From assembly GCA_963798285.1 (NCBI GenBank), contig CAWCSR010000003.1, positions 784,905-848,904 of the forward strand: DNA of 64,000 nt, written 5' to 3'. A program made the position numbers and the translations under genes. The notes beneath the pieces were generated by a model. That model was not told where the DNA came from, made no database searches, and saw nothing but the letters and a program-made list of their open reading frames with translations. This DNA comes from an uncultured Thermoleophilia bacterium. Its GTDB lineage: Bacteria; Actinomycetota; Thermoleophilia; UBA2241. This document shows, piece by piece, positions 1 through 22,889 of this stretch (the stretch's first letter is position 1; each line of letters opens with the position of its first letter).

Positions 1-3000
1 TGCCAGTCGGTGCCTCCTCCATAGGAGATGAAGATGTCGACCGGGCCGCCGCTTCCCGGCGTCCAGGTGATCGTCTGTGCGGAGCCGATGGCCCAGTGCT
101 CGCCGCCGTTCGGGATCAGCACGGTGGGTGGAACCGTGGTCGAGACCGTGAACGAGGAGACGGCCTGCGCCTGGTTGCCTGCCTTGTCGATCCCTGTGAT
201 CACGACACCGTGCGGGCCATCGGCCAAGGCGTCCAGGTTCTGACCCGTCTGCTTCCCGACCGTCATGCCGTCGACCAGGACGACGACCTGGGCGAGATGC
301 GCATCGCTCGCGGTGAAGTCAAGCTCGGGAGTGGATGTGGTGACCGTCGCGCCGTTGGCCGGTGACGTGAGGAACACCGCCGGCGAGGTCGTGTCGATGC
401 GCACCGTCAGCCGTTGTGCCGGTTCGACGTTGCCTGCGGCATCCACGGACCAGTAGTCGAGGGTGTGAACGCCGTCGCCGATGACCGTGATAGGCATGCT
501 GAACAGCTGAGCCGACCCACTATCCAGGCTGTAGAACGTCGCCGGCACCGTGGGGTCGATGTCGTCCAGCGCCGAGAGGCCGAGCGTGATGCCGGCGTCG
601 TACCAGCCGTCGGCGTTCGGCTGCGCACTCGGCGTCGCCGTCGTCACAGGCGGATCGACGTCCGTGAGCTGAAGGCTGATCGGTTGAGGCTCAGTCACCG
701 TGCCGCTGGTGCCGCCGTTGCCGAGTTGCCCGAAGTCGTTGTAGCCCCAGGTCCACAGGCCTCCATCGGCCCTGACGCCGAGGCAATGGGACTCGCCAGC
801 CGCGATCGCGACCCAATCCGCTGCACCCTCGACTCGTCCAGGCGACTCCGCCGGATTCGATGAATCGACCGGACGCCCCAGCTCTCCGTGCGTGTGATAG
901 CCCCACGTCCAGAGACTGCCGTCGGCCTTCAGGGCCAGCGTGAACCCACTTCCGCCGACGACTGCTGTCCAGGCTGCATCGCCTATGTGGACCGGCGAAC
1001 TTCTGCCGATCGTGGTGCCGTCTCCCAGCTCGCCGGACGTATTGTCGCCCCACGCCCAGAGACTGCCGTCCGCCTTCAGAGCCATGCTGTGATAGGCACC
1101 GGCCGCGACGGAGACCCAATCGCCGTCCGTCCCCACCTGGCCGGGCTCGTCCGCAGGATGTGCGGCGTCGGCATCACGCCCGAGACGGCCGGAGTCGACC
1201 ACGCCCCACGACCAGAGTGTGCCGTCGGAGCTCAGGGCAAGGCTGTGGTACGAGCCCGCCGAGACGGCGACCCAGTCGGTGCGACTACCCACCTGTTGTG
1301 GGGTGCTTTGGTTGTCGGTGCCGCCGAGGCCCAACTGACCGAGGTTGTTCTGGCCCCATGCCCACAGAGTCCCGTCGCTTCTGATGCCGAGACTGTGCCC
1401 CCATCCCACGGCGATGCTCTTCCAGGTGTGACCGGTCACCTGTCCAGGGGCGTCAGCGGGGTGTGCGGCGTCGACGGTGCGGCCGAGCTGGCCGTAGCCG
1501 TTGTAGCCCCACGACCAGAGCGTGCCATCGGGCTGCAGTCCGAGGGTGTAGAGGTAGCCGGCCGCCAGTGCCGTCCAGGTGGACCCCGCGACCGGAGCGG
1601 GTGTCCCATGCCGAGTGTAGTCGTACGTGAACCCGAGTTGGCCGTAGTCGTTGAATCCCCAGGTCCAGAGTTCGCCAGCGTGGTTCACCGCCGCTGTGTG
1701 ATCGGTGCCGCCGGCCATGGGCGGCGCCTGCAGCGTGATCGAGGTCGGGAGAGTCAGTTGCTGCGTGGGATCCGCGTTGCCGTACTGGACCAGGATGTCC
1801 TTCTGGCCGATGCCCGCCGGCAAGGTGACCATGCTGGAGGCCGAATATCGCTGCCAGCCCGTCCACGTCGTGCCGTCGTCGAAGCTCACACGCATCGTGT
1901 CGGCATCGTCGACCTTGGCCGAGTCGAGGGTGACCAGCCTGCTGAAGGTCGTGGCCGAACCGTGGTTGAGGGTCATGTGCCCGGTCGGCGGGCCGGTGAT
2001 GAGGGAACCCTTGGCGGTCGTGGCCGTCACGTTGTTGACACCGTCGTGGACCTCGACCATGACGGCCACGTCTCCCCGGCTCACGTCGGGCAGCGAGAAC
2101 TGCACCAGATACGGATCGGCGCGATCCGGATCCGGAGTGAACGTCTGCGTGAAGTGTTGCGCTTCGTCGTCCCCGATCTGGACGACGTCGATGCGGGAGA
2201 TGCCACTCTCGTCCGCGGCATCCACCGTCGCCGTCCAGTCGTGACGCACGTTGGACAGGGTGACCGTGTTGACCGTCGGCCTGAGGGTGTCGTCGGCGGG
2301 AGCCCCGTCGGGCGCCTGGCTGTAATCGGCCTCTACGAGTTCGACCTCGAGGCTCGTCCAGACCTTCTCCGTGCCCGTGATCCCGTCGTCGCCCGCGTCG
2401 GTGGCGAGCAACTGGGCCGGAGTCACGATGAGCTCCTGCTCCTTGCCCTGAGGTGTGTCGATCGTCGACACGGTGACCGGGGACGACGGCGACAAGCCAT
2501 CGGCGTAGGCGAGGGATTCGCCTTCGTCGGTGGTCCCCCCTGCGGTGACCGAGGTGATCGACGGGTTGAAGTCGGTGATGTCGATGTACGTTCCGTCGGT
2601 CACGATTGCCGCCGTGACCGGCGTATCACCCGCTGGCCCCAGGTTGATCACCATCCGAGGCTGGGTCGGCCTGTCCGGCGTGGACTGCGAGTCCCCGTCC
2701 ACCGTGATGTACCGGGCCGTCCGCGTGTCTGCCGCCGGCTCGATGAGCTTAGCTTCGTAGGTCCTGCTGCCTTCGGTGCCGTCTGCCGAGAGTCCGGACA
2801 CCGTGAGCTTGAAGTCGGTGGTCGGGAACGCGCCGTCGAACGTCGCGGCCGGCGGATCGACCGGCTGCAGCGTCGGCGTGCCCTCGACGTCCACCGTCTG
2901 AACGACGGGCCACTGGACCTCGCCGATCCCGGCCGGCTCGTGCGTCGTGCACGACAGGCGGTACTGCGGCATGCCGTACATGGTGTACTGGATGCTGGAC

Positions 3001-6000
3001 TTCTCGTCGTAGGCCGTCACCGCCGTCAGGTCGTTGAAGTACTGGCGCTTCGCCGTGGTCAAGGCCAGGCCGATCGGCTGGCCCAGGGCGGCGTCGGTGG
3101 ATGTGGTCACCTGGTCGGCGAACCGGCCCATCAACTCCTCGGTACCGGCGATACCGCTCCAGTCACCGAGCCCGTAGCCGGTGCTGGCCACGAGCACGCC
3201 CTTCTGTCGCGCCATGGCCTGCGGCACGTCGAGCGACGGGTCGATGTCGGCCCAGCGGTCGTTCGCCTGATCGTCCGGGACGCTGAGCCCTGCATGGCAG
3301 CCGATCGTGAAGATGAGCTTGCCGGCGAACGCCGGAGACGAGGCGATCTCGGTGCTCGAGAGGAACTGATCGCTCCAGTCGTCGCCGGCCATCATCGTCT
3401 GGTAGCCGGCGCCCGAGATGGTGCCGAAGTGCGTGTAGTGAGAGTTCAGGTTGCCTACATCGCTGTCGGGAAGATCAGTCCGCAGATCGTCGAGACTCCA
3501 CGTGTCCGGCGTCTCCATCTGGGCATCCAAGCCTGCATTGGTGAGGATCTGGTTCACCCGCTGGGCGCCGTCGGTCATGAAGTCCTGGCCGGTGACGACG
3601 GAGCTTCCGCCCGTCAGGACGCCCTTGTCCACATTGAGGAACTTGTCGATGGTGCCGGCGATCTCGGCAGGCGTCTCGACGAGGCGCGCAACGGCGACAT
3701 CCGGGACGTAGAGCCAGCGGCTGCTGTACGGGATGGGGGTTTTGTCTGCGTAGTAGTCATCGGTCAGCACCTGGGACTTGAACAGCCCGCTCTCGAGCAC
3801 GCTGGTGAGGTCGAGGGCAGACTCGTCGGCATAGAGGCGCTCGTTGTCGAACGACGTCCGGTCGATCACCCGGCGCTGGGGGACGACCTCGTCGCTGCCC
3901 ACCAGCACGATGTACTTGATCGAAGGGTGACCGTGGTCGTTCGGATCCGCTGGATCCCCGTAGATGCAGTCGTCGATCTCCGCCCTGATGTCCTCAGCGA
4001 CGCCATTGGCGAGGTCGGTGTCCCACGGCGTGCGGTCCCAAGGGTCATAGATGCTGGAGGGTACCGCGAGGATCACGCCCTTGCCGGTCAGGTCACTGCC
4101 GCAAGCCGCATCGAGAGCAGGCTGGACTGTGTTCGACCAGGAATTCAGGCCGTAGTACGCGTCAATGCGCTGCGGCTGCGTGACGAACAGGGTCTGCGGA
4201 TCCGTCACGGTCGCCGGGTTCAGGATGGCCGGCTGCGTCGTGACGCCGCTCTTGACCTTCTCGGTGCCGCTCTTGCCCTCGTTCAGGAGGGCGGAGTAGT
4301 CGAGCTCAGGGGTCGTCTCCACCTGGAGCGTGTACGGCGCGACGTCCGAGTACGCGCCGTTCGCGCCCTTCACAGCGATGAACGTCTTGCCGTTCACCGT
4401 TTCGACGGTGACAAGGATGACCTCGTTCTGCGTCCCTGACGCGGCCGAGTAATCGCTGATCGTCCGCATCTGCATCTCTTCGTGACTGAATCCCAGCTCC
4501 TCGAACGTGATGTCGCCGCCGGACGTGGTCGTGTCGTCCAATTGGGTGAAGCTCAGATCGGAGAGCGGATAGCCGTCGAGGAGCTTCGTCTGGTCCCCGG
4601 TAAGGCTGGGCCCGAGCTGCGTGTAGAGCGTCGTGGCGTCGGGGTCGCGGTAGAAGGCCTCGAAGTCGCCGCCGCCGCCGGTGGCCAGCCTGCCGCCGCC
4701 GCCGGTGATCAGCCTGCCGCCGCCGCCGGTGGCCAGGCGCCCGCCGCCGAGACTGATCGTCCTGGCAATGGACTGGCCCTCGAGCGGAGTCATGTTGCTC
4801 GTCCACGTGTCGTAGAGGCCCTCGTCGATCGCGCCCCCGCCGCCGGTGATCAGCCTGCCGCCGCCGCCGGTGGCAAGCCTGCCGCCGCCGCCGGTGGCAA
4901 GCCTGCCGCCGCCGCCGGTGATCAGCCTGCCGCCGCCGCCCGTGATCAGCCTGCCGCCGCCGCCGGTGGCCAAGCGCCCGCCGCCGCCGGTGATCAGCCT
5001 GCCGCCGCCGCCGGTGGCAAGCCGAGCGCCGACGAACTGCACGCGGCCCGCATCGACTGTGCCGCCGGTGATGAAGGACGTGCCGGCCAGATCGGTTTTC
5101 GGGATCACGTATTCCGGCTGGTTGCTGTAATCCTGGATGACGGCTGCGTCGTAGTCGGCGGGCAGGTTCCTCAGGGTCACCAGGACCTGTGTCCCGGCGT
5201 CGAGCGGACTGCCGTCGGTCTTCGTGACCTCGTAGATGTCCACGTCTCCCGTGTGTTGGATGTAGGACTGGCGGAGGTCTCCATTGCCTCGGATCTGCGG
5301 TGTGCTCTCCGTGATGCGGTCGTTGCCGTTCTCTCCCTCGTCGGCCGACATGGCGTCGTTGTGGATGGTGATGGTGAAGGGCACCGTTGTCGCGGCGCCG
5401 CCGTTGTCGGCGGTGACGGTGAGACTGCCGTTGAGCTGATCGCCGTCGTCGCCGAACAGAGGCTCCGTGACGCCTTCGACGATGCCCGAATCCAGCGCGG
5501 CAAGATTGTCCTCGGTCACGTACGCTTCGGGCCGCGCGTCGACGCTGTCGCCGACGATGTGCCAGGAGGCGGAATGCGTCTCGGCCCATGCCGAGTCGAT
5601 GAAGCGGCCGACCAACTCGGCCGGTTGACCGTTCAGGACGTCCACGTTCAGGGCATGCACGCGCGGATCGAGTTCGCCGACCTGGATCGGCTGCTCCACG
5701 ACGCACCGGGCGCCGCTCGCGTTGGCCCCGACGTCGTCCGTGACGGTGAGCACGGCGCTGTAACTGCCCTTCGTGTCCGGCACGATGAAGCCGAGCGGGT
5801 CGTTGAAGCTCACCCAGTTCCGGTCCGGATCGACGTAGTCGATCTGCCAGTCCCAGCCCATTTTGCCCCAGTCGCCGTCGGGGCTCCACGCGTCGTCGGC
5901 GTACAGCCCCACGATGTCTCCCGCGTTGGGCGCCGACGGCTTCATCGTGATGGGTGGCGCGGCGACGGTGAAGTCACAAGTCTTCGTCGTGCTGACGCCT

Positions 6001-8267
6001 GCGCTGTCAGTCGCGGTCACGGCCAGCTGGTAATCGCCGTCTGCCAGGGGATCCGGCATCGGCTTTCGTGATGCTGCATTCACCGCGCGGCCAACTCCAA
6101 GATGGCCAGAAATATCGTACTCGGCGAGGGTGACCTCGAGCCCCGTGAGCGGGCTGCCACCCGGCTTCTGCGCCTCGAACTCGAAGACGGGCTCGTTGTA
6201 GACCACCGTCCCCGCATTGACGTTCCGCAGGGACACGATCGGCTTGGCCGAGTCGATCTTCAACGTGATGGTGTTGTCGGCTTCCTTGTTGCCGGCGGCG
6301 TCCACCGACCAGTAGGTCAACGTGCGCTCTCTGGTGGTCCCGTCGTCGATGACCTTGGCACTCTCACTCTGTTGCGGAGCCTGGCCGTCGATCTGATACC
6401 ACGTCTCCATGACCCCGCTGCCACCCATGTCGGTAGCGCTCAAGTCGTACGTCACGTCGGTCGCATACCAGCCATCGCTGTCGACGGACGTGGTCGATGC
6501 CTCCGTGACCGGGTCCTCGGTATCGAGCTTCGCCTGGATCACGGCGGTCTGGCTGTTGCCCGCCTTGTCGGTCGCGGTGAAGGTCACCGTGTAGGCACCG
6601 TCGTCGGTGATCTTGAACGTGTCGGTGATGCCGGAGGCGTACGTCGAGCCATCCTCCTCCTTCGCCACGTAGCTGACCCCGGCCACCTGCGACAGCCCGT
6701 CGCTCGCGCCGGCGCTCACGGTGACGTCTTGGTCGCTCCACTCGCCGCTCGGCGACTTGGTGGGAGCGAGGGTCGGCTTGGTGGTGTCGATGTTGAAGTA
6801 CAGTCTGTTGTGGGCCTCGACGTTGCCGGCCTTGTCCGTCGACCAGTACTCGAGCTGATGGTTCTTGAGGTCACCACGGATAGTCACGTTTGCGCCGGAC
6901 GTCGTCGCGCCACTGTCGAGGCTGTAATAGGTTCCGGCAACACCGGAGCCGCCCGGTTCGTCGGCTGCCGCCAGCGTCACCGTCACGGCGGTGTCGTTCC
7001 AACCGGCTGGGTTCGCCGCGGGGCTCTGGGTGGCCGTGGTCGTTGGCGCGACGACATCGTAGGCGTACGCCGCGACATTGGGCTCGTAGGCGATCGTCGC
7101 ACCGCTTGAAGAGCTGAATGCGCCGCCGCAGAGCACCGTGCCCTTGATGACGGCCGAGCTCGAGATGCTGATCGCGCCGGCCTTGTCGCATAGGAGTCCG
7201 TAGAAAGTCGAGGTGCTGCTGATCGACAGCGCCTTGCTCGCGCCGGTCATCAGGAAGAGCGCCGGCTTGGGATCTGCGCCCACGCCGTCGCCCGCCATCG
7301 TCTGGACACCGCTGATGCTTACGTTGCCGCCCGCGACGAAGAGGCCGACGTTCCACTGGCCGGTGCCTGACAGGGACGTGTCGCCGGCGACGTACGTCGG
7401 CCCCCACTGCAGGGCCGTGCCGGCGGAGATGCTGAGGCTGCCGCCGACATACAGCGAACCGATGCTGAACTTGGCGTTGGAGGCCGAGATCGACATGCTG
7501 CCGGTAACGTAGAGGGACTTGAAGGTGTAAATGCCGGAGCCAGAGATGGAGAGGTTGCCGTTGACCGTCATGGGGGTCGTGACGGTGACGTTCTGGGTCC
7601 CGCTGTACACGACATTCTTCTTGGCCACCGTACTGTCGTAAGGGGCGATCTTGGCAGCGGCCGTCAGCGCGGAGATGCGCGAGTCGGGCAGATACTGCGC
7701 GAATGGGGGAACATTCGCGCCGGTCGCCTGCGACACCGTGCTCACGTTGGCGGTCTTCGCGGTGGTCAGCTTACCCTTGACGTAGAGGGCGGCAGTCGGG
7801 TCGGCGCCGTAGAGCGGGCTGGTGACCTTGGTCGTGCCGGCCACGCTCGCGTTGCCTCCGACCCAGAGCGCCACACCGCGCATCTTCAGCGTCGCGTCGG
7901 AATGCTGCGCCTCGGCGACCCCGTTCTTGTCGACCGAGTAGTACCTGATGGGATACACGCCAGGCATGGTGACCGTCACGGACGATCCCGTCTGCCACGA
8001 CGTGCCGCCGTTCAGCGAGTACATCGTGAAGTCGACGCCCGGGCCGCCGACGTCGGTGGCCGTGAACCTTACCGTGACCGACGCGGTCGTCTGCCACGCT
8101 GCCGGACAGTCGCACGTGGTCGAGGGTGTGGTCACGTACAGCCAGCCGGGCTGGATCCCGAGATCATCCGCCCATGCAGTCTGCGTCGCGGCGCCCGCGA
8201 GGCCACCACCGAGTGCGAGAACGGTCAGGACAATCAGGAACAGATACGGCCGTGTCGACGTGCGCAT
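1..8267 (-). CDS. Giant secreted multidomain surface protein, N-terminal >2,755 codons (3' end lies beyond the window start)
   Basis: Own translation of the minus frame whose codon top coordinate is 2 mod 3. ATG at 8265-8267 is preceded by GGGGGAG. The signal peptide is [33 protein letters not shown]. There is no in-frame stop down to nt 3, which explains its absence from the ORF track. All listed ORFs in 1-8267 are in other frames or on the other strand and have Arg/Gly/Pro-rich shadow composition. Phase was spot-checked at 4443-4499 ([19 protein letters not shown]) and 2742-2759 (YEAKLI). Recurrent motifs: GWY..., YWS(V/T)D(A/K)AGN(V/K)E (OmpL47-type/Ig-like modules), GDVDIYEV (PPC-like) and [13 protein letters not shown] (RCC1). 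Confidence 0.85.
700..1725 (-). repeat. Seven RCC1-type beta-propeller blade repeats (protein level, ~50-aa period) inside the giant ORF
   Basis: Translation gives seven blades: [98 protein letters not shown]. Each is followed by an H(S/C)L(G/A)(L/I/V) strand. Confidence 0.8.
4666..4750 (-). repeat. Tandem 21-bp repeat array A (3 units) encoding GGG(G)RL(A/I)T heptads
   Basis: The reverse complement reads [31 protein letters not shown]. The units are near-identical at nucleotide level (ggcggcggcggcaggctg[atc/gcc]acc). Confidence 0.9.
4833..5026 (-). repeat. Tandem 21-bp repeat array B (8 units) encoding GGGGRL(A/I)T heptads
   Basis: The reverse complement reads [69 protein letters not shown]. 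The listed plus-strand ORF 4846..5130 (PPPPV(A/I)SL repeats) is its antisense shadow. Confidence 0.9.
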
Positions 8268-8678
8268 GACTCCCCCAATCAAGCGGCTGGCCCTTTGTGA
8301 CTCTGGGCGGTGAACGACGCGAAGCGCCTCAGGGCGAGGCGCGATGAACCAAGAATCGCGATAGACTCCAACGACCTGATTGTGATGACCTTCACATGCC
8401 CCCATCCGGGATGCAGGCTAGTCGCACGATGTGTGTCGCCGAGCCCGGAGTTCCGTGGGACCCGCGGTCGGCCGCGATCTGAGTCCCACCCACTGGCCAC
8501 TAGGCTATAAGTGGGTTCGGGGCGACCGCCTCACCCGGTTTGGGTGAGATTGGGGCGAGAACTGTCGCCAGCGAAGGCGACGGCAGACGCAGCCTGAGGC
8601 GACGCGGCCCGGCCGCCGCCAAGCCCGCCGGCCCCCAGGCGCGCGGACGGCGGCCGACGCAAGGCCTGCGAGGTGTGG

Positions 8679-9008
8679 TCAGTCAGCCCTGCGAGCGTCT
8701 TCTCGGACCGCGTGCCGGCCGACTGCGGGGCCGACCGCGGTCCACCGCACCTGCGCGGAGGCGGTCGGAGCCTTCGCGAGCCACGCGGCGACGCGGTCCG
8801 AGTCGCGCCGGATGCTCATGACCGGCAGCGCCTCGTACTCGAAAACGCCGGCGGTGAGTCTCTGTGTCAGAGCGCCCACGGCGACGCATCCCGGCGGCGC
8901 CGACGCAAGCACGCGCGCCGCCATGCTGATCTCCCAGCCCTCGAGAGGACCGCACCCCAGCCTGGGGCGATGCCGAAGCGCGGGAAGCGGCCCGGCCTGT
9001 GGACTCAT
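8679..9008 (-). CDS. Hypothetical small protein between the LuxR-family gene and the giant ORF (start uncertain; internal ATG gives MAARVLAS...)
   Basis: It is the only ORF in 8268-9048 with non-shadow composition and high third-position GC. I recognise no motif. Confidence 0.3.
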   Translation of the reverse strand: MSPQAGPLPALRHRPRLGCGPLEGWEISMAARVLASAPPGCVAVGALTQRLTAGVFEYEALPVMSIRRDSDRVAAWLAKAPTASAQVRWTAVGPAVGRHAVREDARRAD

Positions 9009-9048
9009 GAGGAGGCCGCGCCTTGGGCGAGCCGATGTGCGCCCCGCG

Positions 9049-11331
9049 TCAGTCCCGGACGAGCAGACCGAGCTCGCGCGCCCTGGCGACGGCGTCGGCG
9101 CGCGACGAGACCTCGAGCTTGCGGTAGAGGCTCTTGACGTGCGTCTTCACCGTGTTGCGCGAGACGAACAGCTGCTCGGCCATCTGCGCGTCCGTGAGGT
9201 GCGTCGGCAGGAGCTCGAGCACTCGGCGCTCGGCCGGCGTGAGCGGCTCGGACAGCCGCTTGCGCTCCACGGCCTCGAGGAGCCGCTCGGCGCGGCGCCG
9301 CAGGATGCCCGCGTCGGGGTACCGCTCGAGCAGCATCTGGGCGGCGAGCGCGTGCGCCTCAGCGGCGGTCATGTCGGCGCGCTCGACGGCGCCCTCGCCG
9401 AGCACCACGTCGGCGAGCAGCGCCATCCACGGGTGAGACACCATGTGGCGCAGCAGCCGCGCCACGTCGGCAGCCGCCTCCTCGCCCTCGGGTCCGGCCG
9501 CGCGCGAGCGCAGCTTGACGCGCGTCAGCAGCATCGGCAGGCAGCGCCGGTGGGTGCCGAATCCGAGACTGGTCAGCAGGTCGGTCGCGCGCCCCTCGTA
9601 CTCCCCGGCGACCTCCCACTCGGCTTCGTCCGCGGCGATCAGCGCGAGGTAGCCGAGTGCGCCGAGCTCGGCGGACTGGTTGCAGACCGAGCCCTCTCGA
9701 GCGCCGACCGCGAGTGGGTGGAGTGCGCGCTGGGTGGACCCCGAGAGCCAGCGCGCCACGCCGAGCACCACCTGGGCATCGGCGTACCAGCTGGTGCCCG
9801 GAGTGGCCTCAAGGCGGGCGGCGAGCTCCGCGTCTTCGCGCATCTGGCGCACGCCGCGAGCGCCCACCGTGGCGCGGAGCAGGGCCTGCGACGAACGCAG
9901 CGATGCGGCGCCGTCCGGCGAGGGCGAGTCGTCCATCGGCGCCGAGCAGGCCGCCTCGCACCAGCGCTCACCGAGGCGGCCGGCGTCGAGGGCGGAGTAG
10001 ACCCAGCCGGCGGTGAGCGTCAGCGGCGGCTGCGTGAGGATCTGGCGGTCAGTGAACGAGGTGAGCCAGCGGCGGACCGTCTCAGCCTGGCCGCGGTTCC
10101 ACATGCCGGGCCAGGCCGCCGCCACCAGCTCGCCGGCGGCCACGGCCTCCCCGGCGGCAAGCAGGTGGTGCACCGCCTGGTCCGGCAGGTCCTCGTGCGC
10201 GTACCAGTCCGCCACCGTCCGGTGTAAGGTGTCGGGCATCCCCGGGTGCCGCTTCTCCAGCTCGTCCTGCAGCATCTCGGCGAACAGGTGGTGGTAGCGG
10301 TAGTGGCAGCCGTCCTCGCCCAGGGGCACGACGAAGAGCTCGTCGCGAGCGATCCGCGCCAGCAGCTCGCCGCCGTCATCCCTGCCCGTGACGAGTGCGC
10401 ACAGGCGGGGCGTGAGCTCGAGCAACACCGAGGTGCGCAGCAGGAACTCCTGGACGTCGTCCGGCTGCGCCTCGAGCACCTCGGAGGTGAGGTACGCGGC
10501 GATCTCCCGGCGCCCGCCACGGATCCCGCCCACCCAGTCCGCCGCCGGCCGGCCGGCGCCGGCGAGGCAGGCCAGCTGCAGGCCGGTGGCCCAGCCTTCG
10601 GTGGCCGCCAGCAGCGCGCCGGCGGTCTCGTCGTCGAAGTCGCAGCCGTGGATGCGCAGCAGCTGAGCGACCTCCTCGGCGTCCAGTGAAAGCCGCGCGG
10701 CGTGGAACTCAGCGACCTCCCCGCTGGCGCGCATGCGCGCCAGCGGGAGCGTGGGGTCCGTGCGCGACCCGATGGCGAGCTGCGCGCCGCCCGGCAGATC
10801 GCGAAGCACTGTGGCGACGAGGTCCCAGACCTTGTCCCCCCGCAACAGGTGGGCGTCGTCCAGGACGAGCACGAACGGCGGCGCCGCCGCCAGCGCCTCG
10901 CCCAGAAGAGGCAGGATGCGCTCGCTCACCGGTGGCGCAGCCAGCGAAAGCGAACTGTGCACGGACGGGTCCAGCTCAGTGACGCACTCCAGCGCGAGCG
11001 CGACGTAGGTGAGGAAGACGACGGGGTCAGAGTCGGCATCGTCGAGCTGGATCCAGGCGAACGGCCGGCCGTCGGCTTCGGCCCACTGCCGAAGCACCGT
11101 CGTCTTGCCGGCCCCGGCGGGTGCGCAGAACGCCACCAGCGGCGCGCCTGTGCCGCTGAGCTCGTCGAGCAGCGCACGGCGCTCGACCAGCCGGACGCGG
11201 GCCTGTGGCGGCCGTAGCTTGGCCGGCAGCGTGTCCGCCGGCGGGCGCCCTTGCTGGGCTGGTGCCGAGGCAAGCCAGCGCGCCCGCAAACGGGATGCGG
11301 TATCCGAAGATGGCCCCTCGCGCGAAGTCAC
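9049..11331 (-). CDS. Large ATP-binding LuxR-family (LAL/MalT-like) transcriptional regulator
   Basis: Intact 760-aa ORF. N-terminal Walker A is APAGAGKTT. The central region is TPR-like and helical. The C-terminal LuxR HTH is LTPAERRVLELLPTHLTDAQMAEQLFVSRNTVKTHVKSLYRKL. Confidence 0.85.
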   Translation of the reverse strand: MTSREGPSSDTASRLRARWLASAPAQQGRPPADTLPAKLRPPQARVRLVERRALLDELSGTGAPLVAFCAPAGAGKTTVLRQWAEADGRPFAWIQLDDADSDPVVFLTYVALALECVTELDPSVHSSLSLAAPPVSERILPLLGEALAAAPPFVLVLDDAHLLRGDKVWDLVATVLRDLPGGAQLAIGSRTDPTLPLARMRASGEVAEFHAARLSLDAEEVAQLLRIHGCDFDDETAGALLAATEGWATGLQLACLAGAGRPAADWVGGIRGGRREIAAYLTSEVLEAQPDDVQEFLLRTSVLLELTPRLCALVTGRDDGGELLARIARDELFVVPLGEDGCHYRYHHLFAEMLQDELEKRHPGMPDTLHRTVADWYAHEDLPDQAVHHLLAAGEAVAAGELVAAAWPGMWNRGQAETVRRWLTSFTDRQILTQPPLTLTAGWVYSALDAGRLGERWCEAACSAPMDDSPSPDGAASLRSSQALLRATVGARGVRQMREDAELAARLEATPGTSWYADAQVVLGVARWLSGSTQRALHPLAVGAREGSVCNQSAELGALGYLALIAADEAEWEVAGEYEGRATDLLTSLGFGTHRRCLPMLLTRVKLRSRAAGPEGEEAAADVARLLRHMVSHPWMALLADVVLGEGAVERADMTAAEAHALAAQMLLERYPDAGILRRRAERLLEAVERKRLSEPLTPAERRVLELLPTHLTDAQMAEQLFVSRNTVKTHVKSLYRKLEVSSRADAVARARELGLLVRD

Positions 11332-11437
11332 CTCTCCTCCCCCTCAGGCGACCTTACGACAGTGGACCTTCAGTTTACGTCACCCAACGGTGACTCACCA
11401 GAGTCCAGCCGCCCGCCACGGTCTGTCGGCCAGGGGC

Positions 11438-11767
11438 TCAATACAGGTGGGGTCGGACCTGGGCGAAGCGCAGTCGCGTGCTCGCTGCCCGCAACGAGCA
11501 CCAGGCCAGGGTCCTGTCGTCACCGCGTCGCGCCTGGACGTGGTCGCAGGCGGGCCGGCCGGAGTACACAAGGCAACCTTCCAGCGCCGCCCCGCGGCAC
11601 GTGCAGACGGCGCGGGGCTGCACGGCGAACAACTGGGCGTACCGGCACTCGGCGCACACCAGGTGGGCGCGCGCCACGTACGGGAGTTCTCCGGCAACGG
11701 GGCTCGCCTGCCGCCGCGCTCCCGTGAGCCTGACCATGACGCCTCCGATCACCTCGCGCTCTGCCAC
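11438..11767 (-). CDS. Hypothetical Cys-rich small protein (possible zinc ribbon) upstream of the LuxR-family gene
   Basis: ORF with CAEC ... CTC ... C ... C spacing (HLVCAECRYAQ...AVCTCRG). No family recognised, and it could be non-coding. Confidence 0.25.
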   Translation of the reverse strand: MAEREVIGGVMVRLTGARRQASPVAGELPYVARAHLVCAECRYAQLFAVQPRAVCTCRGAALEGCLVYSGRPACDHVQARRGDDRTLAWCSLRAASTRLRFAQVRPHLY

Positions 11768-11890
11768 ACCACCAACAGTACCGGCGAGGGGAGTGGCGAA
11801 GCTTCACCCTATTCGGGTGGTCCGCGGTACAGCCGGAGAAAGGGCCGCACGCCGGGACACGGCGGGGCCGGGACACGGCGGGGGGCCGAC

Positions 11891-11965
11891 GTGGCCGCGC
11901 TCGCGCAGCGGGCCGGAGTGGCCGCGCTCGCGCAGCGGGCCGGAACTAGCCGCGCTCGCGCGCGG
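11891..11965. repeat. 27-bp tandem duplication (2 full copies plus a partial third that overlaps the DUF3870 stop codon)
   Basis: gtggccgcgctcgcgcagcgggccgga occurs at 11891-11917 and identically at 11918-11944. The partial third copy actagccgcgctcgcgcgcgg contains the TAG stop (complement of 11946-11948). Confidence 0.9.
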
Positions 11966-12326
11966 TGCCGTCCGGCCGCGCGCTCGGCAGCGGGCCGGCG
12001 GCCTCGCCCAGCACCAGCGGGCTCTGGTCGACGGCCTCGAACGCCTTGTGGAGCGCGGAGACGAGCGCGCCCTGGGAGTGGCCGCGGTAGCGGTAGCGGA
12101 CCAGGGCCTCGATCTCCGCGCGCTCGGTGAGCACGTTGCGGCCGATCAGCAGGCGCTCGAAGAACGCGGAGGCCGCCACCATCATCAGGGTGGTGCTGCA
12201 GGCGGTGACCACGCCTTCCGCGTCGACCTCGACGACCACGCCGACGCGCTTGTACATGGCCTGGTGGCTCACGTCCTGCGGCAGGCGCGCATAGCCGGAG
12301 AAGAGGAAGGACATCGGCTCGCTCAT
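11946..12326 (-). CDS. DUF3870-like protein
   Basis: Intact 126-aa ORF. The pattern SGYARLP...VGVVVEVDAEGVVTACSTTLMMVAASAFFERLLIGRNV...YRGHSQGALVSALHKA matches my recollection of DUF3870, a family often found next to glutaconate-type CoA-transferase genes. Confidence 0.55.
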   Translation of the reverse strand: MSEPMSFLFSGYARLPQDVSHQAMYKRVGVVVEVDAEGVVTACSTTLMMVAASAFFERLLIGRNVLTERAEIEALVRYRYRGHSQGALVSALHKAFEAVDQSPLVLGEAAGPLPSARPDGTARERG

Positions 12327-12541
12327 GCGCGCATGCTAGCACAGGCTTGCGTCCGCGCGAGGGTGGCGGGACTGTTGTGCCGCCGCCGCCCGCGTGTATC
12401 ATGGTGCCGCTGCCGCAAGGCCCGGGCCGGCGGCGTTCCCACCGGCCCTTTCGTCAGGCCCTGCTCCCCAGCTGAGACGCACCGTGCTCGCTGGGGCTTT
12501 CGCGTTTAAGGAACCCCGGCAGACTCGAGAAGGGGGATGCG

Positions 12542-13520
12542 ATGGCAGAGCACGACGGCCTGGACGGCAAGCTGATGACCATCGGCGAAGCCGTCGAGCG
12601 CTTCGTCCACGACGGCGACCAGATCTGTGTCGGCGGGTTCACCATCACCCGTAACCCGATGGCGGCGGTGTACGAGATCGCCCGCCGCCGCATCAAGGAC
12701 CTGCACCTGGTGGCGCACTCCAACGGCCAGGCGCTGGACGTGCTCGTCGGGGCCGGCTGCGTGGCGCCGCCTCGACATCGCCTACGGCGGCAACGGCCGC
12801 TTCGCCCCGACCTGCATCCGCTTCCGCAAGGCGGTGGAGCGCGGCGAGCTGCAGGTCGAGGACTACACCAACAACATGATGAGCCTGCGCTTCCTCGCCG
12901 GCGCGCTGGGCGTCCCGTTCATCCCCAGCAAGTCCGGCCTGGGGACCGACGTGGTCGAGAAGAGCGGCTTCCCGCCCGAGCTGCGCGGCAAGAACGGCGT
13001 CCCGCGCGAGAAGGTCATCGTCATCGACGACCCCTTCGGACACGCCGACGACGAGGTCGTGCTCCTCCCCGCGCTCACGCCCGACGTCTCCGTCATCCAC
13101 GCGCAACAGGTGAGCACCGACGGCACCGTGCGCATCAAAGGGCTCACCTTCGCCGACCTCGAGCAGTGCAAGGCGTCGACAGCCGTCATCGTCACCTGCG
13201 AGGAGATCGTCCCCGAGCACTACCTGCGCCTCGACCCCGACCAGAACGCCCTGCCGCCGTTCCTCGTCGACGCCGTCGTTCCGGTGCCCTACGGCGCCCA
13301 CCCCACCGCCTGCCGCTTCTTCTACGACTACGATCCGGCGCACCTGAACCGGTACAAGGCCGTAGCCAAGGACGACGAGCAGTTCGACGCCTGGATGGAG
13401 GAGTGGGTGTACGGCATCGAGAGCCGGGACCACTACCTGGACAAGGTCGGCGGCGCGCAGCTGGCGCGCATCCGCGCCAACACCGTCGCCGGCTACGCGC
13501 CCGGCCTGGACCGGAGGTGA
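12542..13520 (+). pseudogene. Glutaconate-type CoA-transferase subunit A (one frameshift near 12765 in this assembly)
   Basis: The N-terminus MAEHDGLDGKLMTIGEAVERFVHDGDQICVGGFTITRNPMAAVYEIARRRIKDLHLVAHSNGQALDVLVGAGCV is in frame 2. It continues as RLDIAYGGNGRFAP...VIHAQQVSTDGTVRIKG in frame 0 (ORF 12627..13520). Confidence 0.8.
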
Positions 13521-13525
13521 GCGAG

Positions 13526-14350
13526 ATGACCGAGTCCACATCGGCTCACGGAGCGGCCACGTCGCCGGCGACCGCCCCGGACACGACCGCGCCCGCCTAC
13601 TCCCCGCGCGAGATGATGGCGATCGCCGCCGGGCGGTTCATCAAGGACGGCGACGTGCTCTTCGCCGGCACCGGCGTGGCGATGCTGGCCGCCACCGTGG
13701 CCAAGCGCATCCACGCCCCGCACGCGCACATCTTCTTCGAGACCGGCGGCATCGGGCCGCTCCTGGACGAACTGCCCATGGCGGTCGCCGACCCGCGCGT
13801 CATGGCGTTCAGCAACCTCAACGCGGGGCTGGTCGAGGCCTTCAGCTACGTCGCCAACCGGCGCCTGCACACCATCGCCTTCCTCGGCGCCGCGCAGATC
13901 GACCGGTACGGCAACATGAACTCGACGGTGATCGGCGACTATCTGGCGCCCAAGGTCCGCTTCAGCGGCAGCGGGGGCGCCTGCGACGCCGGCTCGCTGG
14001 CGAGCGGCTACATCGTCTTCATGCAGCACGGCGTGCAGAAGTTCGTCGAGAAGCTGGACTATCTGACCACGCCGGGCTGGCTCGAGGGCGGCGACTCGCG
14101 CAGGCGCGCCGGGTACCGGCGCGGCGGGCCGATCGCCGTGGTCACCAACCTGTGCGTACTCAAGTTCGCCGACGACACGCACGAGATGTACCTCGCCGAG
14201 CGCTACGAGGGCGTGTCGCCGGAGACGGTCCAGGAGCACACCGGCTTCCCCCTCGACGTCTCCCGCGCCACGGTGGCCACACCGCCCACGGCGGAGGAGC
14301 TGCGGATCCTGCGCGACGACGTCGACCCGCAGCGCCTCATCCTCGGCTGA
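13526..14350 (+). CDS. Glutaconate-type CoA-transferase subunit B
   Basis: ATG at 13526 (an alternative GTG at 13517 overlaps the subunit A stop). Sequence: MMAIAAGRFIKDGDVLFAGTGVAMLAA...FLGAAQIDRYGNMNSTVIG...FSGSGGACD. It is the in-frame tail of listed ORF 12542..14350. Confidence 0.8.
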   Translation: MTESTSAHGAATSPATAPDTTAPAYSPREMMAIAAGRFIKDGDVLFAGTGVAMLAATVAKRIHAPHAHIFFETGGIGPLLDELPMAVADPRVMAFSNLNAGLVEAFSYVANRRLHTIAFLGAAQIDRYGNMNSTVIGDYLAPKVRFSGSGGACDAGSLASGYIVFMQHGVQKFVEKLDYLTTPGWLEGGDSRRRAGYRRGGPIAVVTNLCVLKFADDTHEMYLAERYEGVSPETVQEHTGFPLDVSRATVATPPTAEELRILRDDVDPQRLILG

Positions 14351-14605
14351 CGGCCGCCGGGGGCGGCAGCAAGAGCGTCCGGTCGGACGACGCGCCGAAA
14401 CGGCGCGCCGGTCGGCCCTTGTCTGGCCGCGGCGGGGGTTGACCGCGCTGACTCCCGGCCGGAGGCTCAGGGGCAGAGCCAGCGGCGAGCCGGCCGGAGG
14501 GGGCAGACTCGCCGGACCGGCCCGCTTTCAGGCTTCCGGGGGGACGCCTTCACGTGCGGTTTCCTCTGCCTGCGCGGCGGGCCCACACCGTGGAGGTCAG
14601 CCCGC

Positions 14606-15829
14606 ATGAGCCACATCAACCCCGGCGACACCGCGTTCGTCCTGATCTGCGCCGCCCTGGTCGCGATCATGACGCCCGGACTCGCGTTCTTCTACGGCGG
14701 CCTCGTGCGCCACAAGAACGTCATCACCATCATGATGCAGAGCTTCGCCTCGCTCGGCGTCGTCACGCTGATCTGGGTGACCTTCGGGTTCACGCTGGCG
14801 TTCGGCCACGACGTCCACGGCGTGATCGGGGGCCTCAACTACATCTTCCTGAACGGCGTCGGCCAGACGCCCAACCCGGACTTCGCGCCGACGATCCCCT
14901 TCCTCGCCTTCTTCGTCTTCCAGCTCACGGTCGCGGCGCTCACGCCGGCGCTGATCACCGGCGCCTTCGCCGACCGCGTGCCGTTCGGCAGTTACCTCGT
15001 CTTCCTCGCCGCCTGGAGCCTGCTCGTCTACGTCCCCCTGGCCCACTGGATCTGGGGCGGCGGCTTCCTCGAGCAGTGGGGCGTGCTCGACTTCGGCGGC
15101 GGCATGGTCGTGCACGGCGCCGCCGGCTTCTCCGCGCTCGCGTCCATCTACGTGATCAAGAAGCGGGTGTTCGTACCGGGCGAAGAGGAGAAGCCGAGCA
15201 ACATCCCGCTCATCGCCATCGGCCTCGGCCTGCTGTGGTTCGGCTGGCTCGGCGACAACCCGGCCGGCGCGTTCGCCGCCAACGGCGTCGCGGCGCAGGC
15301 CTTCGTCAATACCTTCATCGCCGGTGGCTGCGCCATGGTCGTCTGGATGTTCACCGACTGGGTGCGCAGCGGCAAGGTCAGCATGGTGGGCTCGCTCACC
15401 GGCGTGCTCGCCGGCCTCGTCGCGGTGACGCCGTGCGCCGGCTACGTGCCCACCTGGGCGGCGGTCTTCATCAGCCTCGCCGCCGGCTGGATCTGCTACG
15501 GCGCCCTGCTCTTCCGCAAGAAGCGCGGCTGGGACGACTCGCTCGACGTGTGGGGCGTGCACGGCGTCGGCGGCCTCTTCGGCAGCCTCATGGTCGGCTG
15601 GTTCGCCTACGGCGCGGTCAACGGCGCCAGGGGCCTCATGGACGGCAACCCCAAGCAGTTCGGCCTGCAGCTGGCCGCCGTCGGCATCACCCTCACCTAC
15701 ACGTTCGCCGTCACCTGGGCGATCTTCAAGGTGATCGACGTCGTCGGCAACCTCAGCGTCGCCGCGCAGGTGCAGGCGCGCGGGCTCGACGAGGAGCTCC
15801 ACGGCGAAAAGGCGTACGCCTTCGACTGA
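14606..15829 (+). CDS. amt: Ammonium transporter (Amt family)
   Basis: Intact 407-aa ORF with DTAFVLICAALVAIMTPGLAFFYGG, VHGAAGFSAL and LDVWGVHGVGG signatures. Confidence 0.95.
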   Translation: MSHINPGDTAFVLICAALVAIMTPGLAFFYGGLVRHKNVITIMMQSFASLGVVTLIWVTFGFTLAFGHDVHGVIGGLNYIFLNGVGQTPNPDFAPTIPFLAFFVFQLTVAALTPALITGAFADRVPFGSYLVFLAAWSLLVYVPLAHWIWGGGFLEQWGVLDFGGGMVVHGAAGFSALASIYVIKKRVFVPGEEEKPSNIPLIAIGLGLLWFGWLGDNPAGAFAANGVAAQAFVNTFIAGGCAMVVWMFTDWVRSGKVSMVGSLTGVLAGLVAVTPCAGYVPTWAAVFISLAAGWICYGALLFRKKRGWDDSLDVWGVHGVGGLFGSLMVGWFAYGAVNGARGLMDGNPKQFGLQLAAVGITLTYTFAVTWAIFKVIDVVGNLSVAAQVQARGLDEELHGEKAYAFD

Positions 15830-15877
15830 GCCTCCAGGGAGCTCCTCGGGCCGGGCCCGCGAGCCGCGGCCGCAGGC

Positions 15878-15913
15878 GAGGGGCGCGGCGGCCGCACGGC
15901 TGCCGCGCCCCTC
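15878..15913 (+). terminator. GC-rich hairpin downstream of amt (candidate intrinsic terminator without U-tract)
   Basis: gaggggcgcggcggc (15878-15892) pairs with gctgccgcgcccctc (15899-15913) with one mismatch and a 6-nt loop. Confidence 0.4.
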
Positions 15914-16137
15914 CTCGTCGGGGCTCGCCATAGTGGCGCGCGGCCGGTCGGCCACAGGCCCAAGAGTCAGCTTGCTGCCGGCTTCACAAGCTGTGAGAAT
16001 CGCGCCAATCGGGCGGGTGGGTCGAGGGAATCCCCATCTTGCCCGGCACACGTCCGGCCTGCGGGTGCGGTTCGCCGACGTACTCCCTTGAGGGTTCCGA
16101 GCCCGGGGCGCCGGACAGGGTCATAGGAGGATTTCGC

Positions 16138-17367
16138 ATGGGCGGAATCAACACGGGCGACACCGCGTTCGTCCTCATCTGCGCCGCCCTGGTGGCGCTG
16201 ATGACGCCAGGCCTGGCGTTCTTCTACGGAGGCCTGGTTCGCCGCAAGAACTTCCTGGCGATCATGATGCAGTCGTTCATCTCGATGGGCGTCGTCACCA
16301 CGATCTGGGTGTTCTTCGGCTACTCGCTCGCGTTCTCGGGCGACATCGGCGGAGTGTTCGGCAACCTGCACTGGGCCATGCTCACCGGCGTCGGCCACCT
16401 GCCGGGTCCGTGGGCGCCGAACATCCCGGCACAGGCGCACTTCGTCTACCAGGAGATGTTCGCCATCATCACCCCGGCGCTCATCACCGGCGCGTTCGCC
16501 GACCGCGTCAAGTTCAAGAGCTACCTCTGGTTCCTGGTGCTCTGGAGCATCATCGTGTACATCCCGTTCGTGCACTGGATCTGGGGCGGCGGCTGGCTCG
16601 ACGCAGCACGGCGTGCTCGACTTCGCCGGCGGCCTCGTGGTCCACGTGAGCGCCGGCTTCGCCGCCCTCGCGTCGGTCTTCGTGGTCGGCCGGCGCAAGT
16701 TCGGCCCGGGCGAGCGCGGCCTGCCGCACAACGTGGCCTTCGTGGCCCTCGGCACCGGCCTCCTGTGGTTCGGCTGGTTCGGCTTCAACGCCGGCTCGGC
16801 GCTCGCCGCCAACGGCATCGCCGCACAGGCGTTCGTGAACACCGACATCGCCGGCTCGATCGCCATGTGCACGTGGCTGGCGATCAGCTGGCGGCACGAC
16901 GGCAAGCCGAGCCTCGTCGGGGCGCTCACCGGCGCCGTCGCCGGCCTCGCCTGCGTCACGCCGTGCGCCGGCTACGTCCCCACCTGGGCGGCGTTCATCG
17001 TCGGCCTGCTGGCGGGCTCCGTGTGCTACTCCGCCGTGATCTTCGTGAAGCAGCATGAAGTGGGACGACGCGCTCGACGTGTGGGCCGCCCACGGCGTCG
17101 GCGGCTTCATGGGCGCCATCCTGCTCGGCGTGTTCGCCCTCAAGTCGGTCAACCCCGCGGGCGCCGACGGCCTCATCACCGGCAACTGGACGTTCTTCGG
17201 CTGGCAGGTGCTCGCGACCGTCGTCTGCGCGGCCTACGCCTTCGTCGCGACCTTCCTCATCCTCAAGCTCATCAAGGCTGTTCGGCACGATCCGGGTGCC
17301 GGACTCCGTGGAGCTCAGGGGCCTCGACGAGACCGAGTTCGGAGAGACCGCCTACGACCTGACGTGA
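16138..17367 (+). pseudogene. amt: Second ammonium transporter paralog (three frameshifts near 16600, 17050 and 17280)
   Basis: ATG at 16138 follows TAGGAGGA. Pieces: MGGINTGDTAFVLICAALVALMTPGLAFFYGG...HWIWGGGWL (frame 1), LDFAGGLVVHVSAGF...VIFVKQ (frame 2), KWDDALDVWAAHGVGGF...LILKLIKA (frame 0), then ...IRVPDSVELRGLDETEFGETAYDLT* (frame 1). Confidence 0.85.
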
Positions 17368-20270: not shown

Positions 20271-20413
20271 GTCGCCTCCTGTGGTGGGCGGCCGGGGCCG
20301 CGGCGTCACGATAGGGTCTCACTGGGTTATGGACGCCGCGAGAAGCCCGAAAACGCGGCGGTCGTCAGGCTCGGCCGCGGCGTACGGGACGTTGAGCCGC
20401 CGCCGCAGACGCG

Positions 20414-20442
20414 GGCCGGCCGCGAACAGGCCGCGGCCGGCC
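20414..20442 (-). terminator. GC hairpin downstream of the first sigma gene (candidate terminator)
   Basis: ggccggccgcg (20414-20424) pairs with cgcggccggcc (20432-20442) around a 7-nt loop. It lies about 25 nt past the restored stop at 20465. Confidence 0.35.
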
Positions 20443-20464
20443 GGGGCCCGCCGCACCGGACTGC

Positions 20465-21602: not shown

Positions 21603-21637
21603 TGACTTGTTCAGCGCTCCTCTGTTGTAGCGGCGTC

Positions 21638-21750: not shown

Positions 21751-22887
<1,137 letters not shown>

Positions 22888-22889
22888 CG

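Follow-up and report, generated by a model that had tools for sequence, protein, structure and literature searches.

A probable giant secreted C25-type peptidase with a peptide-repeat loop and a neighbouring cyclase gene in an uncultured soil actinobacterium

A 64,000-nucleotide stretch of DNA from an uncultured Thermoleophilia bacterium (GenBank assembly GCA_963798285.1, contig CAWCSR010000003.1, positions 784,905 to 848,904), here called the window, begins with the larger part of a giant minus-strand gene. The host of this gene is an uncultured soil Thermoleophilia-like actinobacterium. Our analyses indicate that the gene very probably encodes a giant secreted C25-type peptidase. Considering the gene together with its relatives, the explanation that we regard as the best overall, and as likely, is a giant secreted C25 protease that carries an array of short repeats in a loop and has a cyclase as its partner.

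The giant gene and its predicted peptidase domain

An earlier note on this DNA had read an uninterrupted minus-strand frame of more than 2,755 amino acids (aa) from an ATG at position 8267, running on past the window edge, and had taken the open reading frames (ORFs) listed for this region to be antisense or out-of-frame shadows. Both points held up when the six frames were recounted. Translation of positions 3-8267 gave 2,755 codons with zero stops; a stop codon in this frame was looked for by recomputation and none was found across bases 1-8400 (2,799 codons; the test region ended at 8400). The first in-frame stop 5' of the ATG is 49 codons away. Each of the remaining five frames contains 8-134 stops over bases 1-8400, and their longest open stretches, of 1,191 and 555 codons, are shadows. 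The giant gene has a GC content of 0.61, 0.52 and 0.87 at codon positions 1, 2 and 3 (the last hereafter GC3), which is a coding signature in DNA of 67% GC. A chance open frame or shadow ORF was ruled out by GC3, by domain matches that occur in the frame of the giant gene only and by the existence of homologues. An alternative in-frame ATG 46 codons upstream of ATG 8267 has neither a Shine-Dalgarno-like site nor a signal peptide.

The full-length protein was recovered in a protein search (P0001, 3,783 aa) and differs from the window translation at three residues (D608N, S892P and G1086C). The complete gene is also present in a contig from ENA (ERZ25039489 contig_127818, hereafter L001) that is 99.68% identical to window positions 1-16687. 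Four single-base indels distinguish L001 from the window, every one of them outside the giant gene. Because two independent assemblies agree, the 11,352-nucleotide (nt) gene is intact, and an assembly chimera is ruled out by the presence of the same gene without indels in the independent ENA contig. The window contains 73% of the gene, its N-terminal part; the remainder of the 3,783 codons, supplied by L001, lies beyond window base 1. The features on which this section draws are as follows.

3..8267, minus strand: giant gene, first 2,755 of 3,783 codons (open frame, GC3, P0001 and L001)
8270..8276, minus strand: Shine-Dalgarno-like GGGGGAG, 2 nt 5' of ATG 8267 (read from the sequence)
8169..8267, minus strand: Sec-type signal peptide, aa 1-33, with a basic n-region, a 20-residue hydrophobic core and an A-W-A cleavage motif (read directly)
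2943..4250, minus strand: predicted C25-type (gingipain-like, clan CD) cysteine peptidase domain, aa ~1340-1775 (Pfam, AlphaFold, Foldseek)
3429..3440, minus strand: candidate catalytic His motif LNSHYTHFG, with H1610 at 3438-3440 and H1613 at 3429-3431 (conservation)
3297..3299, minus strand: candidate catalytic Cys1657 in IGCHAGL (conservation)
888-4439, plus strand: shadow ORF, 1,183 aa (ORF list)
4306-5889, minus strand: shadow ORF, 527 aa (ORF list)
4482-6071, plus strand: shadow ORF, 529 aa (ORF list)

The protease module that had been suspected within this protein was borne out by profile and by fold. When aa 1300-1800 were scanned alone, the Pfam family Peptidase_C25 (PF01364) matched over profile positions 65-368 of 374 (E 1.5e-7), and its 31.5 bits exceeded the cut-off of 23; this family was not among the matches when the whole protein was scanned. 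An AlphaFold model made with a 16-sequence alignment gave the peptidase domain a predicted local distance difference test score (pLDDT) of ~88. In a Foldseek search of the PDB with this model the top match was RgpB (1cvr, E 3.5e-10; 4ief_D, E 1.7e-9; both with probability 1.0), with target-normalised template modelling (TM) scores of 0.55-0.56 and an identity in the structural alignment of ~11%. The next matches were separase, procaspase-7 and PorU, all of which belong to clan CD. Profile searches and Foldseek had both been proposed as checks in the earlier note, and domain matches were found in the frame of the giant gene only.

Conservation at the candidate catalytic residues is high. Among 161 representative homologues, the His motif N-x-H-x-x-H has N1608 in 150, H1610 in 157 and H1613 in 152, and the Cys motif G-C-H-x-G has G1656 in 159, C1657 in 157, H1658 in 151 and G1660 in 158. 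The two motifs are therefore kept in 93-99% of these homologues, with the candidate His preceding the candidate Cys, and in the same set, which spans several phyla, conservation exceeds 92% at ~40 further positions of the catalytic domain. Together, the sequences and the model support the identification of the conserved core as a cysteine peptidase of the C25 (gingipain) type in clan CD, with the look of an active enzyme.

To our knowledge, C25 peptidases are known almost only as virulence factors of Bacteroidota, the gingipains, and as PorU, the sortase of the type IX secretion system (T9SS). The giant protein resembles the gingipains RgpB and Kgp of Porphyromonas gingivalis (MEROPS C25, clan CD) in its catalytic fold, in the order of His before Cys, in being secreted and in having beta-rich segments N-terminal to the catalytic domain and beta domains after it. 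However, it is about nine times as long as the 432-residue RgpB chain, shares only the low identity given above, has no T9SS C-terminal domain, has added propellers and a beta-solenoid, and comes from a monoderm-type actinobacterium. Its His motif is N-x-H-x-x-H, and its upstream beta region is PPC-like, has a tandem-peptide loop inside it and has no Propeptide_C25 match. 4ief is the complex of the RgpB prodomain with the mature enzyme; the prodomain blocks the active site of RgpB with an inhibitory loop. With PorU the giant protein shares a C25-like domain within a large multi-domain protein, a weak Foldseek match (6za2) and, at aa 2006-2084, a weak match to the C-terminal part of PorU (NCBIfam, E 9.6e-5). 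By contrast, the PorU model NF033707 reached 20 bits against a cut-off of 420, and nothing points to transpeptidase activity. The C-terminus is built from PD40 repeats and gave no match of the Por_Secre_tail type, and the examined loci showed no T9SS context; as far as we know, a T9SS is implausible in this phylum.

The repeat array and its diversity across the family

Directly upstream of the protease domain the protein contains 11 copies of an 8-residue unit, (T)GGGGRL[A/I]. These had been described as glycine heptad arrays; both Tandem Repeats Finder (TRF) and the codons of each unit give a period of 24 nt, so they are octads. The arrays and the segments that flank them are listed here.

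5118..5312, minus strand: N-terminal half of a split PPC-like beta-sandwich, aa ~986-1050 (five strands, AlphaFold pLDDT ~75)
4515..5117, minus strand: disordered loop with the repeat arrays, aa 1051-1251 (AlphaFold pLDDT ~23)
4833..5036, minus strand: sub-array 1, eight units of 8 aa plus a terminal GGGG, aa 1078-1145 (TRF period 24 nt, 7.7 copies, 86% match)
4668..4751, minus strand: sub-array 2, three units plus a terminal GGGG, aa 1173-1200 (TRF period 24 nt, 3.4 copies)
4308..4514, minus strand: C-terminal half of the split PPC-like sandwich, aa ~1252-1320, with YTLQVET at its end (modelled with four strands; strongly conserved)

An alignment of the family places the array between the motifs LPADYD.AVIQD and LDGY.., a site that is occupied by only a short linker in distant relatives, and this loop is an insertion point of variable length in homologues (a gap of 30-480 aa). 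A PPC-like domain had been proposed for this part of the protein. We found no match to PPC (PF04151) in the giant protein, whether or not the loop was spliced out. In three distant homologues PPC was matched below threshold (18.7-24.3 bits against a cut-off of 25.9, E 6e-5 to 3e-3), and these matches cover profile positions 1-38 of 70 and stop exactly at the point where the array is inserted; one homologue carries a precomputed PF04151 together with C25. Because the half-profile matches end at the insertion point, we read the flanking strands as a PPC-like sandwich that is split by the loop, and from the model it is plausible that the strands around the loop form one such sandwich. The PPC-like label has only weak support in the giant protein, in which nothing reached the Pfam threshold. 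A classical pentapeptide-repeat protein (quadrilateral beta-helix) was rejected for the array because the repeat segment has no Pfam match, has a pLDDT of ~23 and has a period of 8 and not 5.

To place the array in its family we carried out an exhaustive search with the core (aa 1205-2100), which gave 2,206 clusters (at 50% identity) with E of 1e-3 or lower and 742 with E of 1e-30 or lower. Its main hosts are soil Actinomycetota and Chloroflexota. All members have only the catalytic core in common, and accessory modules are exchanged between them: relatives retain the N-terminal region together with the split sandwich, array and core, but in place of the C-terminal propellers they have FG-GAP, NHL or LVIVD modules. 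Of the 107 representatives whose upstream sequence was long enough, 80 carry a short-period array that precedes the catalytic domain by 50-700 aa, and several of those scored as negative show imperfect arrays by eye. It is rare for these long proteins to have arrays at other places (7 of 107). The commonest period is 5, and the sequence of the unit is different in nearly every lineage. The window has GGGGRL[AI]T and its nearest relatives have GGKGRLIS and GGRLVSGG. Other units are GGGGKVW, GGGDWDAIRANI, PVRRGMDWEGL, PHLRS, ATSRKSPWDDY, GFNKGST, PFQLS, PWQLS, G[FY]QMG, APMRT, SPWGK, SPFSR, GWIRG and GYDFS. Often an aromatic or hydrophobic residue comes directly after Pro or a small residue, and in the closest relatives, which are mostly of the Thermoleophilia type, every inspected unit contains Arg, Lys or His, often paired.

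In a second group, of more distant homologues, arrays that precede the catalytic domain by 450-640 aa have P[LV]xx[IV]-like units (PLGSI, PVGSI, PLRSV, PVNQS and PLSSI; loci L024-L083, from Gaiellales, Acidimicrobiia, Nocardioides-related metagenome-assembled genomes and Thermoleophilia). These units are related to each other, unlike those of the diverse arrays in the PPC loop, and may form a structurally different class of repeat. In one representative homologue (P0210, 3,075 aa) the C25 domain is preceded by at least eight period-5 arrays, which are separate and mostly ~100 aa apart. This suggests that a module of ~100 residues with an embedded pentapeptide array can itself be duplicated.

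We then compared all pairs of units within each of 84 arrays for which DNA was available with the method of Nei and Gojobori, obtaining the proportions of synonymous (pS) and nonsynonymous (pN) differences. Results from this showed that pS was larger than pN in 79 of the 84 arrays, with medians of 0.42 and 0.086. This was very clear for PFQLS in 23 copies (pS 0.73, pN 0.012), APMRT in 14 copies (0.64 and 0) and SPWFS in 7 copies (0.67 and 0.02). Arrays read in shadow frames behave in the opposite way and served as an internal control. In the window array the codons for Arg, Leu, Gly and Thr vary synonymously and position 7 alone alternates between Ala and Ile, with pS of 0.24 and pN of 0.12; this array appears to be younger or homogenised. 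Across the family, the units within arrays are thus under purifying selection. Synonymous sites are saturated and the amino acids are kept, so that the arrays must be old and their peptide sequence is itself maintained, which speaks against a mere slippage spacer.

This bears on the possibility that the array is a flexible, low-complexity spacer that arose by slippage and has no sequence-specific role, the protein being simply a large protease or adhesin. The predicted disorder of the loop is compatible with such a spacer, as are the Gly-rich, near-identical DNA units of the window array and the lack of relationship between units of different lineages. The excess of synonymous differences across the family is not, and neither are the fixed site of the array within a conserved domain in most homologues and the rarity of arrays elsewhere in the proteins. 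We consider a spacer of this kind to be unlikely.

Public names for the relatives are hypothetical protein, PKD domain-containing protein, PKD repeat protein and FG-GAP-like repeat-containing protein, and a precomputed PF01364 is present in only some homologues. Our search of the literature for the family, its arrays and the cyclase pairing described below found no description of them. As far as these names and this search go, the statement in the earlier note that the combination of domains was not a described architecture holds. The family consists of C25 peptidases in a new architecture and a new genomic partnership, with an array and a cyclase partner that are apparently undescribed.

The proposed cyclase partner, accessory modules and nearby genes

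In L001 a gene at 19858-23946 starts 85 nt downstream of the giant gene, beyond window base 1, and encodes a protein of 1,362 aa with two class III cyclase domains, an AAA_16 (NB-ARC-like) domain and a MalT-type TPR region, with no helix-turn-helix (HTH) and no signal peptide. The same arrangement of giant gene and partner occurs in three other metagenome loci. A search of the whole 64-kb window for cyclase domains gave no matches. For the wider family, a scan of GTDB species genomes found 225 loci that encode relatives; the best 80 of these were compared. They come from Thermoleophilia (best 68% identity), other Actinomycetota, Acidimicrobiia, Gaiellales, Nocardioides, Chloroflexota and a few other phyla. 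A cyclase domain lies within the fetched DNA (up to 6 kb each side of the match) in 42 of the 80 best loci, including that of the cultured Nocardioides marmorisolisilvae KIS18-7. In this last locus (L032) the two genes are convergent, and the available sequence of the family member, truncated at its 5' end, showed no array. The cyclase gene is downstream on the same strand (tandem) in 19 of these loci, divergent in 17 and convergent in 6. Unbiased clustering of all ORFs in the flanks found no widely conserved neighbour besides the cyclase gene. Such varied orientations across phyla speak for functional coupling rather than inherited operon structure, and we infer that the partner is most simply a regulator of the protease based on cyclic AMP (cAMP).

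The partner resembles mycobacterial Rv0386-like proteins in having a class III cyclase, an AAA_16 STAND ATPase and a MalT-type TPR, and differs from them in having two tandem cyclase domains and no LuxR HTH. We know of no description of a link between a cyclase/ATPase/TPR protein and a secreted protease. For the mycobacterial cyclase/ATPase/TPR proteins, the TPR-dependent roles are described as unknown and the idea that they sense peptides has been raised (bioRxiv 10.1101/2024.03.06.583649).

Further genes related to cyclic nucleotide monophosphates (cNMPs) are found downstream of the partner at L001 23943-28069 and, in a second locus (L004), at 21087-24667. Their products are a type I phosphodiesterase (PF01663), a small protein that binds cNMPs and, in L001, a major facilitator superfamily transporter with a fused cNMP-binding domain. 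They hint at a local cyclic-nucleotide module and are kept in few loci only.

Outside the peptidase domain and the split sandwich, the protein is composed of the following modules.

7893..8120, minus strand: OmpL47-type barrel or immunoglobulin (Ig)-like module 1, aa ~50-125 (NCBIfam NF047446, E 7.2e-11, 42.4 bits)
7068..7880, minus strand: Ser/Gly/Thr-rich beta-solenoid, aa ~130-400 (AlphaFold pLDDT 82-95, predicted TM score 0.78)
5958..7055, minus strand: four OmpL47-type/Big_13/Big_3_2 Ig-like modules, aa ~405-770 (NCBIfam NF047446, Pfam Big_13)
5313..5957, minus strand: two beta modules, weakly PKD-like, aa ~771-985 (Pfam PKD_4 with E 0.36 only; kept in homologues)
1713..2900, minus strand: post-catalytic beta-rich region, aa ~1790-2185 (conserved to aa ~2100 in all close homologues)
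672..1700, minus strand: seven-blade RCC1-like propeller, aa ~2190-2532 (Pfam WD40_RLD, E 1.4e-82)
3..650, minus strand: OmpL47 barrel, Big_13/Big_7 Ig domain and the start of a further Ig-like module, aa ~2540-2755 (NF047446; Big_13, E 1.6e-10; Big_7, E 1.3e-6)

The order of modules in the earlier note was essentially right. It had begun with a signal peptide on a giant multidomain protein, and this peptide is the sole strongly hydrophobic segment (19-mer) in all 3,783 aa. Where a Ser/Gly/Thr-rich beta-helix-like stretch had been suspected, the model has a beta-solenoid with ~25 short, ladder-like strands over aa 216-393, a region that is kept in nine homologues. No family was assigned to this solenoid; a fold search of the PDB gave no significant match, with DUF3494 ice-binding proteins (probability 0.6-0.75) and polygalacturonase as weak ones. 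At least five OmpL47/Ig-like modules had been counted, and NF047446 matches six in total, with 182 bits over the protein against a cut-off of 40 in five stretches plus the N-terminal stretch. Motifs of the form Y[WY]S.D.AGN are at aa 474, 563 and 652, and the model of the first module matches PKD-like domains (E ~4e-3). The proposed further Ig-like modules and RCC1 propeller were also recovered, the latter with 278 bits for WD40_RLD against a cut-off of 150 and with RCC1 and RCC1_2 in seven stretches each. No match was obtained when aa 1780-2200 and aa 1075-1330 were scanned alone against Pfam and NCBIfam; the first ~300 aa of the post-catalytic region are part of the conserved core of the family.

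It had also been suggested that the C-terminus be recovered and searched for an anchor. The C-terminal 1,028 residues beyond the window comprise a Kre9-like Ig module, an InlB-B-repeat-like module and ~10 PD40 (TolB-type) propeller repeats. Neither an LPXTG-type anchor (LP.TG, LA.TG) nor a C-terminal hydrophobic tail is present across the 3,783 aa, and the protein has no recognisable wall or membrane anchor. Within the PD40 region an insertion of ~83 residues (aa 3497-3579; L001 18909-19157), …IQNAIQTYAAENNDTYPP…PANPYTG…YTTDGTSFTL…, looks by eye like the globular part of type IV pilin or pseudopilin domains and has no Pfam match. The OmpL47/Ig-like, beta-solenoid, RCC1 and PD40 modules are of kinds generally regarded as binding or scaffolding. 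Leptospira OmpL47 and the OmpL47-type proteins of Actinomycetota are similar to the giant protein in these modules, and several such large actinobacterial proteins are among the homologues. By contrast, the full OmpL47 equivalog reached only 103 bits against a cut-off of 250, and the modules are accessory here and absent from most members of the protease family.

One further gene lies directly upstream of the giant gene.

9049..11331, minus strand: MalT/LAL-type regulator with AAA_16/AAA_22 and a GerE/LuxR HTH, 760 aa (Pfam)

This regulator was found at 1 of 85 compared loci and is probably a local acquisition outside the conserved unit. The upstream MalT/LuxR regulator, the CoA-transferases and DUF3870 were rejected as functional partners because they represent local synteny, occurring at no more than 5 of 85 loci. 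Between the regulator and the giant gene there is an ORF of 81 codons (8682-8924, minus strand) that is present in both assemblies, is called in L001 and has no Pfam match. Rfam, promoter and terminator scans of the 5' intergenic region (8200-9100) found nothing. A gene for CoA-transferase subunit A (12542-13520, plus strand) is split over two frames with a break near 12766; it is intact in L001 (325 aa), and a 1-base insertion in the window accounts for the break, which is either an assembly error or a real frameshift. A second ammonium-transporter paralogue (16138-17282, plus strand) extends over three frames, is 47-67% identical to the intact copy at 14606-15829 and is either a pseudogene or the product of indel errors. 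The earlier note had called the giant gene the only long stretch of the window completely free of frameshifts. This was supported in part, in that the giant gene is intact and these two genes are split.

A working model and alternative readings

In the model that we prefer, the giant protein would be an extracellular or cell-surface protease whose accessory modules attach it to polymers or to the cell envelope. The beta-rich segments beside the catalytic domain would act like the beta-sandwich prodomain and inhibitory loop of RgpB; the array sits where gingipains keep their inhibitory prodomain. The repeat loop would be a multi-copy, protease-accessible element that is clipped after export, and clipping would activate or tune the enzyme and free many copies of a short, lineage-specific peptide. 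If the flanking strands form a single domain, cutting would excise peptides and leave the halves of the protein joined. The downstream tandem-cyclase/AAA_16/TPR protein would be a cytoplasmic regulator or sensor that is coupled to the protease via cAMP. Within this model, we propose only tentatively that the array is a processed latency or cleavage loop.

Several observations weigh against the model. In sequence searches of the PDB, phmmer with aa 1300-1800 gave only chance matches, the alignment profile gave none and no gingipain was found, so the link to C25 rests on one Pfam match and on the fold. There are two candidate catalytic His residues, and their H-x-x-H spacing appears to differ from the G-H-G motif of RgpB. 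Many units of distant homologues (PFQLS, GFQMG, GYDFS) contain no Arg or Lys. For the window array, the modest difference between pS and pN and the near-identity of the units in DNA are also compatible with recent slippage. Finally, only a rough estimate was made of how dense cyclase genes are in the background of these genomes.

Self-cleavage of all arrays by one gingipain-like specificity for Arg or Lys at P1 was rejected, given that many units have no basic residue and that the catalytic motifs are invariant.

A different use of the array would be as the precursor of a lineage-specific peptide signal that is released by the C25 domain or another exoprotease, imported and bound by TPRs, upon which cAMP is made, in an RRNPP-like form of quorum or self-sensing. 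Such a precursor could account for the many identical units, for their purifying selection and for differences between lineages that are like pherotypes. A protease domain is immediately adjacent to the array, the only conserved neighbour is the cytoplasmic tandem-cyclase/AAA_16/TPR_MalT protein, found in three orientations, and L001 and L004 also have genes for cNMP-binding proteins close by. RRNPP receptors bind imported peptides through their TPR domains, and the same idea was raised in the preprint on mycobacterial proteins cited above (bioRxiv 10.1101/2024.03.06.583649). As analogies only, yeast alpha-factor, fungal KEX2-processed repeats and Phr/RRNPP systems also have many identical, lineage-specific short units or a TPR gene nearby. 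However, the array forms a loop within a giant enzyme and is no small precursor dedicated to this purpose, these systems belong to other phyla and the output here would be cAMP and not transcription. A carrier of 1,600-3,800 residues is a costly pheromone precursor, clustering of the flank ORFs showed no conserved peptide transporter at the locus, MalT-type STAND proteins usually bind small molecules and the pairing of the genes could reflect transcriptional regulation alone. We regard an RRNPP-like precursor as quite unlikely, and we are just as doubtful that peptides released in our preferred model are a signal read by the TPR-cyclase. A more specific version is that the array is a built-in polyprotein that the C25 protease cuts after export into peptides of 5-12 residues, which report the extracellular proteolysis of the cell or its kin and are converted by the TPR-cyclase into cAMP. 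The window peptide would then be an octapeptide containing G-R-L-[A/I]-T. This version is distinctly unlikely.

Alternatively, the protein may be a giant non-enzymatic adhesin or component of a surface layer, in which the C25-like domain is now structural or binding. Most of its length is indeed made of Ig-like barrels, beta-solenoid and propellers, and identity to characterised C25 enzymes in the structural alignment is very low. By contrast, the conservation of the His and Cys motifs and of the further catalytic-domain positions in homologues from several phyla is a pattern like that of an enzyme, and it is the catalytic core alone that all members share while accessory modules are swapped. 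This makes a non-enzymatic role very unlikely.

Clan CD proteases serve as effectors in some STAND-type conflict systems, and the partner, an AAA_16/NB-ARC-like STAND protein with cyclase domains that match PycC models in PADLOC (E 7e-15), could likewise form an intracellular anti-phage system with a caspase-like effector; we consider this highly improbable because the protease has a Sec signal peptide and modules of extracellular type, its core had no PADLOC match, the PycC matches are explained by general class III cyclase homology and the loci lie among housekeeping genes.

Returning to the giant secreted C25 protease with an array loop and a cyclase partner, neither giant size nor accessory domains would on their own be unusual in soil actinobacteria; the lineage-specific, apparently selected array and the cyclase-STAND-TPR partner are the most interesting features. 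The family is large, has no functional name in the public annotation that we examined and combines a C25 fold with interchangeable binding modules, an array and a cyclase partner. On a conservative reading, its members are probably abundant extracellular proteases of uncultured soil lineages and are relevant to the turnover of protein in soil. If the array is processed, it would represent a new mechanism of zymogen control or peptide release. If the partner senses peptides from the array, this would provide a function for actinobacterial cyclase/ATPase/TPR proteins and a new kind of bacterial peptide signalling. Were the array a built-in polyprotein, the family would embody an unrecognised form of communication from peptide to cyclic nucleotide that is widespread in soil Actinomycetota and Chloroflexota.

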